Below are positions 41,238 to 50,081 of a stretch of 64,000 bases of DNA, piece after piece. Location: positions 930,001-994,000 of the forward strand of contig NW_027140453.1 of the NCBI RefSeq assembly GCF_036365525.1. The letters are read 5' to 3'. This stretch comes from Heterodontus francisci (Eukaryota). The translations under genes were made by a program, and so were the position numbers. Each line of letters starts with the position of its first letter. Position 1 is the stretch's first letter. The notes below the pieces were generated by a model. The model was not told the origin of the DNA. It made no database searches and saw nothing but the letters and a program-made list of their open reading frames with translations.

Positions 41238-42070
41238 ATGTTGCATGAAGTTCTCTGTTTAATCTTGATGGCTGCATTCTTTCCACGTAAGTGAAAGTCA
41301 GAAACTGTGTAGAATAATGTATTGTAATGTCAGCGGTGATTCTGTCTGGAACACTCCTGTGTCTGAGTCTCACTCCACAACACTTGAGCTCAAAGTCAAA
41401 AGTAACACCCCAGGTGTCAGGGCTGAGGGAGTGCTGCACTGTCGCAGAGGCAGGACTGAGGGAGTGCTGCACTATCGCAGAGGCAGTACTGAGGGAGTGC
41501 TGCACTATCGCAGAGGCAGTATTGAGGGAGTGCTGCACTGTCGCAGAGGCAGTACTGAGGGAGTGCTGCACTATCGCAGAGGCAGTACTGAGGGAGTGCT
41601 GCACTGTCGCAGAGGCAGTACTGAGGGAGTAACTACATTGGTTGCAAAGCCTTTCTGATGTCTTGAGGTCCTGAACGGCGCTATATTAATGTCAGCCCTT
41701 TCTTTCTTGCAATGCAGCTCCTGCTCCAATCCATTATTGACTGAAATAATAATTTAATCGATGTTCCATCCCACAGGAATACTCGCCTCCTATGTGGAAC
41801 AGTCGCCCTCTATCCTATCGATTGCAGCAGGAGATTCAACAACACTCAGATGCACGCTGACCAATACTGGCTGTACATTAATGTACTGGTACAGACAACA
41901 ACCAGACAGGGCACTGGAATCTCTGTTCTATTCTGCGACAGAAGGGTCTGTTACAAATTACACGTCTGAGTCATTTAATGCAGTCAGATCCAGCAATGCA
42001 CTGTTTACTTTGGCACTGAGAAACGCTGCTCCATCTCACACCGCTGTCTATTTCTGTGCTTGCAGTATCG
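41238..42070 (+). CDS. TRBV: TCR V segment of a distinct family, open frame, two extra Cys; leader 41238-41286, V exon 41777-42070
   Basis: MLHEVLCLILMAAFFPRILASYVEQSP..LRCTLTNTGCTLMYWYRQ..AVYFCACSI; GT/AG intact. Confidence 0.9.
41410..41710 (+). mobile_element. DeuSINE remnant with ~6 tandem 33-bp units inside the V leader intron
   Basis: gcagtactgagggagtgctgcactgtcgcagag repeats, then SINE tail ggcgctatattaatg. Confidence 0.75.
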
Positions 42071-42109
42071 CACAGTGTTTGAGAAAGCGGATTCGCAGCT
42101 GCAAGAACC
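42071..42109 (+). other. 23-RSS
   Basis: CACAGTG-23nt-GCAAGAACC. Confidence 0.9.
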
Positions 42110-42129: not shown

Positions 42130-42350
42130 TCAGTGCTCATCATCCACCGGCAGGGGGCAGCAGTAGATTGAATGTCAGTGTTCATCTTCCACCAGCAGGG
42201 GCAGCAGTAGATTGAATGTCTGTCCTCATTTTCCCCCGACAGGGGGCAACAGTAGATTGAATCGCTGTGCTCATCTTCCACCGGCAGGGGGCAGCAGTAG
42301 ATTGAATCTCAGTGCTCATTTTCCACCAGCAGTTGGCAGCAGTGGATTTG
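42130..42350 (+). promoter_or_regulatory. Five 45-bp tandem repeats each carrying a CTCF-like core
   Basis: CCGGCAGGGGGCAG at 42147 and 42281 match CCRSYAGRKGGCRS exactly; other units are variants. Confidence 0.65.
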
Positions 42351-47713: not shown

Positions 47714-47752
47714 CACAGTGACTCAGAGAGATGGAGCAGTTCAACAAAAACC
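47714..47752 (+). other. 23-RSS (consensus)
   Basis: CACAGTG-23nt-ACAAAAACC. Confidence 0.96.
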
Positions 47753-50042: not shown

Positions 50043-50081
50043 CACAGTGACTCAGAGAGATGGAGCAATTCAACAAAAACC
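50043..50081 (+). other. 23-RSS (consensus)
   Basis: CACAGTG-23nt-ACAAAAACC. Confidence 0.96.

Follow-up and report, generated by a model that had tools for sequence, protein, structure and literature searches.

An old Cys106 and a recent CDR1 cysteine in a TCR-beta V segment of Heterodontus francisci

Among the V segments in a 64,000-nucleotide stretch of the Heterodontus francisci genome (contig NW_027140453.1, forward-strand positions 930,001 to 994,000; hereafter the window, numbered from its first letter), one encodes two cysteines in addition to the canonical C23 and C104. A sequence-only reading of this DNA had likened the extra residues to those of type II IgNAR V domains, and had proposed a hard-wired CDR1-CDR3 disulfide that would constrain the TCR paratope. 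The question raised by this locus is to which receptor the segment belongs, how each of the two cysteines came to be there, and whether they would bond to each other.

An intact TCR-beta V segment in a multi-cluster locus

The gene has the organization of a complete V segment. A leader exon of 16 codons plus one nucleotide (41238-41286, +) ends in a phase-1 donor, GTAAG, and is separated by a 490-nt GT-AG intron (41287-41776, +), which contains a 33-bp tandem repeat (41423-41630), from an open V exon of the clan that we term CACS (41777-42070, +). The frame 41779-42069 encodes C-TLTNTG-C-TLMYW and YF-C-A-C-SI. The positions of the extra cysteines, seven residues after C23 and two after C104, the presence of a leader and the germline origin of both residues, which are encoded within the V exon, all agree with what the sequence-only reading had described. 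Along the forward strand, canonical Cys23 (41851-41853) is followed by the CDR1 Cys (41872-41874), which lies five residues before W41 (W41-5) and is encoded by TGT where most sister copies have TAT for Tyr, by W41 itself (41887-41889), by an N-Y-T glycosylation sequon (41956-41964), by canonical Cys104 (42055-42057), and by the clan-wide extra cysteine at IMGT position 106 (Cys106; 42061-42063). From sharks to turtles, most members of the clan have an N-Y/F-T sequon, and on the family tree its Asn is invariant. The exon is bordered by a 23-spacer RSS (42071-42109, +) with the heptamer CACAGTG and the nonamer GCAAGAACC. Directly behind the RSS lies a 45-bp tandem repeat of 4.9 copies (42130-42348), the core of which presumably resembles a CTCF site.

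Several lines of evidence identify the chain. The V exon domain matches the Pfam V-set (E=1.2e-14), and an AF2 model of it adopts an ordinary, full V-beta fold that includes the C'-C'' region (pLDDT 93.1, pTM 0.85). The best Foldseek matches of the model are V-beta structures, with TM scores of up to 0.90, and each match bearing a chain-specific title is a TCR beta or V-beta. Shark relatives are 61-73% identical; several are named TCR beta, and two TCR-beta cDNA proteins of nurse shark are among them, as are TCR-beta models from epaulette shark and sawshark. The features expected of a TRBV gene, namely a V-set domain with C23, W41 and C104, a leader-intron-V arrangement and a 23-RSS, are all present. 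The segment is an intact shark TCR-beta V with two germline extra cysteines.

An RSS scan of the window detected ten 23-RSS V ends, nine on the forward strand (within 27239-57490) and one on the reverse strand (24003). The nine other than the segment studied here terminate in CAWS, CAAS or CAAG type sequences. Two CAWS-family copies appear to be broken: the one ending at 47714 carries a stop in FR3, and the one ending at 50043 reads Y-S-C and then runs into the RSS.

At 42 kb beyond the V with the CDR1 Cys is a C-beta exon on the opposite strand, followed by a J cluster, a D, a second J cluster and a second D. Another cassette is found about 142 kb from this V on the same strand. The V is linked to D-beta, J-beta and C-beta elements with 12/23-compatible RSS and, because the near cassette is on the opposite strand, could join it by inversion. 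The forward-strand V segments of the window are downstream of, and inverted relative to, the adjacent D-J-C-beta cassette, as is mammalian TRBV30, and four of the six copies that carry the CDR1 Cys (see below) lie about 42 kb from an opposite-strand C-beta. Multiple C genes in TCR beta were reportedly described in the horned shark papers of the 1990s. At least 21 near-identical TCR-beta constant exons are dispersed through the V array on both strands (contigs C407, C761, C779, C1317, C1675 and C2233; G000). The modules nearest to our V are C407:1014091-1040547 (L104-L106) and C407:1114227-1130474 (L109, L110, L098). Each of the two modules examined has its own D and J cluster, one of them in the order D-J-D-J-C. 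The TRB locus is multi-cluster, with a number of C-beta modules that assembly redundancy may inflate. For mammals and teleosts, few D-J-C clusters are described in the accessible part of a published account (PMC10464911).

A young CDR1 cysteine in a large V family

Scoring the best 150 of 1399 candidates in this genome returned at least 149 close matches on seven contigs. Once duplicates were removed and 6 partial matches dropped, these 149 places yielded 146 full-length copies, 117 of them intact. This single TRBV family has no fewer than 146 full-length copies, and its 117 intact members encode 89 distinct proteins. The leader pattern seen at 41238-41286 recurs in 135 of the 146 copies. CDR1 and CDR2 of the family show about double the density of amino-acid change seen in the framework, and leader introns differ in length, often in steps of about 33 nt (327-556 nt among the commoner lengths).

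The two extra cysteines have very different distributions in this family. Like Cys104, which is found in every copy (146/146), Cys106 is nearly universal: 144 of 146 copies have it, as do 117/117 intact ones (codons TGT 103, TGC 41), and the two copies that lack it have a stop and a deletion, respectively. On a tree of the 98 distinct intact copies, the Cys106 codon changed 7 times with 0 changes of the amino acid, a silent count that gene conversion may inflate; the neighboring Ala105 changes 10 times. The absence of replacements at a codon that does change argues that Cys106 is there by more than chance. At W41-5, the 146 copies have Tyr (113), Asn (12), Trp (11), Cys (6) or a stop (4). The idea, implicit in the sequence-only reading, that the two residues would be conserved together fails in sharks, since the CDR1 Cys is missing from 138 of the 144 Cys106 copies, and 10/10 relatives in eight further sharks and rays combine Cys106 with Tyr at the CDR1 position.

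The six copies with the CDR1 Cys form one clade (support 100/98). The other five are 99.67-100% identical to the window over the 3.3-kb locus, one of them with a 66-nt gap, and three of the five remain about 99.9% identical for 9.9 kb upstream. The closest Tyr paralog among the copies compared has TAT in place of TGT, a single-base Tyr-to-Cys change. These data indicate that the CDR1 Cys arose once, recently, in this shark. Such close identity invites the suspicion that the odd codon itself, or the set of six copies, results from assembly redundancy or error: over 3.3 kb one copy shows 100% identity, several reach 99.9% over 10 kb or more, and the contigs are unplaced and have modules in common. 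We consider this scarcely credible, as the copies differ in substitutions, in intron repeat count and in upstream breakpoints, three of them are on one contig, and TGT is found in all six. Redundancy could cut the copy number; it would not remove the allele. Somatic hypermutation was rejected as the source of the CDR1 Cys, because the codon is present in six genomic copies and because, in the accessible part of their paper, Ott et al. 2018 report no somatic hypermutation of TCR beta in the nurse shark (PMC5931798).

On the other hand, we found no reason to invoke selection. Tyr-to-Cys is a single transition, and on the family tree the 8 sites with a Tyr majority gained Cys 7 times, once at W41-5. 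For this shark, selection for the CDR1 Cys is therefore unsupported and was rejected in view of the background of such gains elsewhere in the family. The allele has the appearance of a tolerated variant, not under selection so far, that segmental duplication has spread. A different CDR1 Cys, at C23+9, is found in three intact copies (L009, L010 and L082, at C779:1233686, C2233:590124 and C1675:71024), has two origins on the family tree and occurs in no other species among the V domains compared.

A further possibility is that the CDR1 Cys is neutral or mildly harmful in a V lineage that is becoming a pseudogene, in which case it would form no useful bond and would be rarely used. A break in the A run of the nonamer would weaken recombination. 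The family norm for this element is GCAAAAACC (127 of 146 copies), and the variant GCAAGAACC is private to the six copies with the CDR1 Cys, in all of which it occurs. Moreover, their sister clade, joined with weak support (87/59), has Trp at W41-5 and is non-intact in 10 of its 11 copies. The changed nonamer and the largely broken sister clade fit a decaying lineage, and both the single young origin and the Tyr-to-Cys gains at other sites suit it. However, the leader, splice sites, C23, W41, C104 and heptamer are intact in all six copies, and the same change is found widely among turtles. We regard this explanation as unlikely, although it carries real weight; it could also hold for expression while the geometry of the bond stays real.

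In one run presumed to be RNA (X1), a contig joins the leader to the V exon of a family member, which is thus spliced there. Across four such runs, 6/6 contigs covering 41873 among the matches listed read A, that is, Tyr, an outcome with a chance of about 78% if the share is 6/146, and the source species or individual may differ; these contigs thus weigh neither for nor against use of the allele. The V ends only 7 nt past the Cys106 codon, so that Cys106 would often survive trimming. The two nurse shark cDNAs of the family retain Cys106 (2/2), in a CDR3 of 11 residues. CDR3 is 11 residues long in all six V-J-C records of the clan (P0003, P0005, P0007, P0008, P0009 and P0022), with an identical junction in those of Mustelus and Pristis. 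Just two of these records, P0005 and P0007, are cDNAs; the remaining four are models from genomes and may have been patterned on the cDNAs, so that the uniform length may be an artefact. The CDR3 of the six fully seen records contains no further Cys, and Cys106 is therefore normally partnerless in them.

The Cys106 clan and its turtle members

The clan with Cys106 extends to newt, alligator and turtles, usually without a partner Cys. At the CDR1 column, newt rows have Lys (4/4) and alligator rows Phe, Tyr or His (4/4). In the turtle clade, 11 of 14 rows carry Cys at exactly the same column as the shark copy. They include rows from the pleurodire Pelusios and from the cryptodires Natator, Caretta, Eretmochelys and Chelydra, and 4/11 are Logan proteins. 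Within an otherwise Cys subfamily, Gopherus P0164 and the truncated first domain of Caretta P0176 have Tyr; these turtle members have either reverted to Tyr or retained it. The search for orthologs thus cuts both ways for the earlier proposal, with Tyr in all ten cartilaginous-fish relatives and the same Cys pair in turtles.

We examined the history of the pair on a 45-row cross-species tree from which both trait columns were removed, and whose rows were picked from matches already carrying Cys106, plus seven outgroups. Grouping the turtle CDR1 Cys rows and the shark copy in a single clade was rejected with the trait columns dropped (AU p=0.00026), and the distribution of the CDR1 Cys requires three changes. 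On this phylogeny, the turtle CDR1 Cys is of separate origin from that of the shark, and is found in both suborders. Support for the clan as a whole being monophyletic is 83/92 (unstarred) on a tree in which the CDR1 trait column was kept, and Cys106 appears to be the mark of an old TRBV clan shared from sharks to turtles. The convergent and long-kept pair of turtles is a stronger lead than the young allele of the shark.

The two positions also covary. Among 396 distinct V domains, Cys at W41-5 is found in 17 of the 45 that have Cys106 and in none of the 351 that do not, and the other CDR1 offsets in the Cys106 class have 0-2 Cys each. In beta-like domains with a small residue at 106 (Cys rows excluded), W41-5 is aromatic in 73 of 95, compared to 0/12 in those with Trp106. 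The rows counted are related, and the counts reflect some two origins for Cys and possibly a single one for Trp106, so that Fisher p-values exaggerate the association. Such size compensation between W41-5 and residue 106 is what direct packing would give. The W41-5 column aligns with the conserved His of mammalian-type V-beta CDR1, which we take from TCR crystallography to contact Ser94 (IMGT 106). Based on the separate origin in turtles and on this covariation, a disulfide between the CDR1 Cys and Cys106 is likely, if the gene is expressed.

These observations suggest how the bond could have come about. W41-5 would be a buried CDR1 anchor, His in mammalian V-beta and Tyr in the clan, seated on residue 106, and Tyr would normally cap the free, buried Cys106. 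Replacement of this Tyr by Cys would convert a packing contact into a covalent staple from CDR1 to the end of the F strand. Such a staple would hold the CDR1 anchor in place, perhaps with a gain in stability. Overall, the explanation that we prefer, with a probability of about 0.58, is an old Cys106 family in which six copies have recently undergone a CDR1 Tyr-to-Cys change, the two cysteines likely forming a disulfide if expressed. A broader and more speculative scenario, which we hold to be doubtful as a whole, is that a free Cys106 beneath the CDR1 anchor has been preserved in an ancient TRBV clan found in sharks, rays, newts, turtles and crocodilians, and that the CDR1-Cys106 disulfide evolved there at least twice; both turtle suborders would have kept it since a locked CDR1-beta serves a fixed ligand, and the shark would have newly acquired it.

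In its strong form, the proposal of the sequence-only reading becomes a selected, hard-wired bond of the IgNAR type II kind that would give shark TCR a constrained, protruding paratope. Both cysteines are indeed germline, Cys106 is kept in the two nurse shark cDNAs and would often outlast trimming, and the convergence in turtles shows that the pair can persist. Nevertheless, the pair is present in only 6/146 shark copies and in 0/10 of the other cartilaginous-fish relatives, no sign of selection is seen at the CDR1 site on the shark family tree, and Cys106 sits at the base of CDR3 rather than in a long loop, with cDNA CDR3s of 11 residues. We therefore judge this proposal improbable. The disulfide itself remains plausible in the light of the turtle origin and the covariation; the constrained IgNAR-type paratope does not.

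Comparison with known systems

Extra intradomain disulfides are known in single-domain antibodies and are undescribed as a germline V-beta feature in the literature searched. We found no description there of a germline Cys pair in TCR beta; one may be in print in the main nurse shark TCR papers, the 1994-1996 horned shark TCR papers or supplements. No PDB TCR with the Cys pair was present among the matches listed. The shark copy alone, one young allele among about 146, is of modest significance. If true, a natural, convergent V-beta staple would point to a place at which TCR beta domains can be made more stable, and the Cys and Tyr paralogs of turtles would offer a clean test of CDR1-beta rigidity in ligand recognition.

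The likenesses to IgNAR type II and to NAR-TCR proved to be analogies only, as the segment is a leadered TCR-beta V. In the accessible part of PMC12907318, type II VNAR are described as having an extra Cys in CDR1 and another at or in CDR3, joined by an inter-loop disulfide, and VNAR in general as single Ig domains with a long protruding CDR3 and without a conventional CDR2. Our V shares with them a non-canonical CDR1 Cys, at C23+7, in 6/146 copies only. It is not a heavy-chain-only Ig V without CDR2 and has no Cys in a protruding CDR3. It is a paired TCR V-beta that has a CDR2 and in which the V itself encodes the Cys at the CDR3 base; the disulfide here is a predicted one. The CDR3 Cys of VNAR originates from the junction. 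Unlike in IgNAR type II, the junctional apex of CDR3 would stay free in the shark V.

The supporting V-delta of NAR-TCR is also a TCR V with a germline CDR1 Cys. In the part of PMC1845163 available, this conserved residue is drawn as a putative interdomain bridge in a leaderless segment of the delta locus. By analogy, the CDR1 Cys of the shark might be exposed and bond to another chain or domain, leaving Cys106 free. This appears most improbable to us: the shark V has a leader, beta relatives and a D-J-D-J-C-beta cassette as neighbor in place of a delta cassette, and W41-5 behaves like a buried anchor that takes Cys only together with Cys106, a candidate partner within the domain.

A C-A-C ending is not confined to TCR beta, for human V-delta2 and mouse V-gamma5/6 segments end in the same way. 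Likewise, the TRGV-like teleost sequences P0034 (Prochilodus) and P0151 (Albula) have a germline Cys106 in a TCR-gamma-like chain. Both domains of Albula P0151 carry a CDR1 Cys at W41-6, one position off, and could represent a third origin of a similar pair.

Among the closest known counterparts are the nurse shark TCR-beta V1-V3 (ADW95889, ADW95896), which belong to the same V family (64-65% identity), begin with YVEQ and end in C-A-C. They correspond to the C-A-C family in the primer table of Ott et al. 2018, as far as that paper was accessible (PMC5931798). Nurse shark V1-V3 keep Cys106 in rearranged cDNA and have Tyr at the CDR1 anchor, so they lack the pair. The pair itself is matched by turtle TRBV sequences (Natator CAM5078457, Caretta CAM2097378 and Pelusios A0A8C8 records), so far unannotated 'Ig-like' models, which have Cys at C23+7, Cys106, the same CDR1 length and an N-F-T sequon. 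Unlike the shark allele, which is confined to one young clade, the turtle pair extends over both suborders and several paralog groups.
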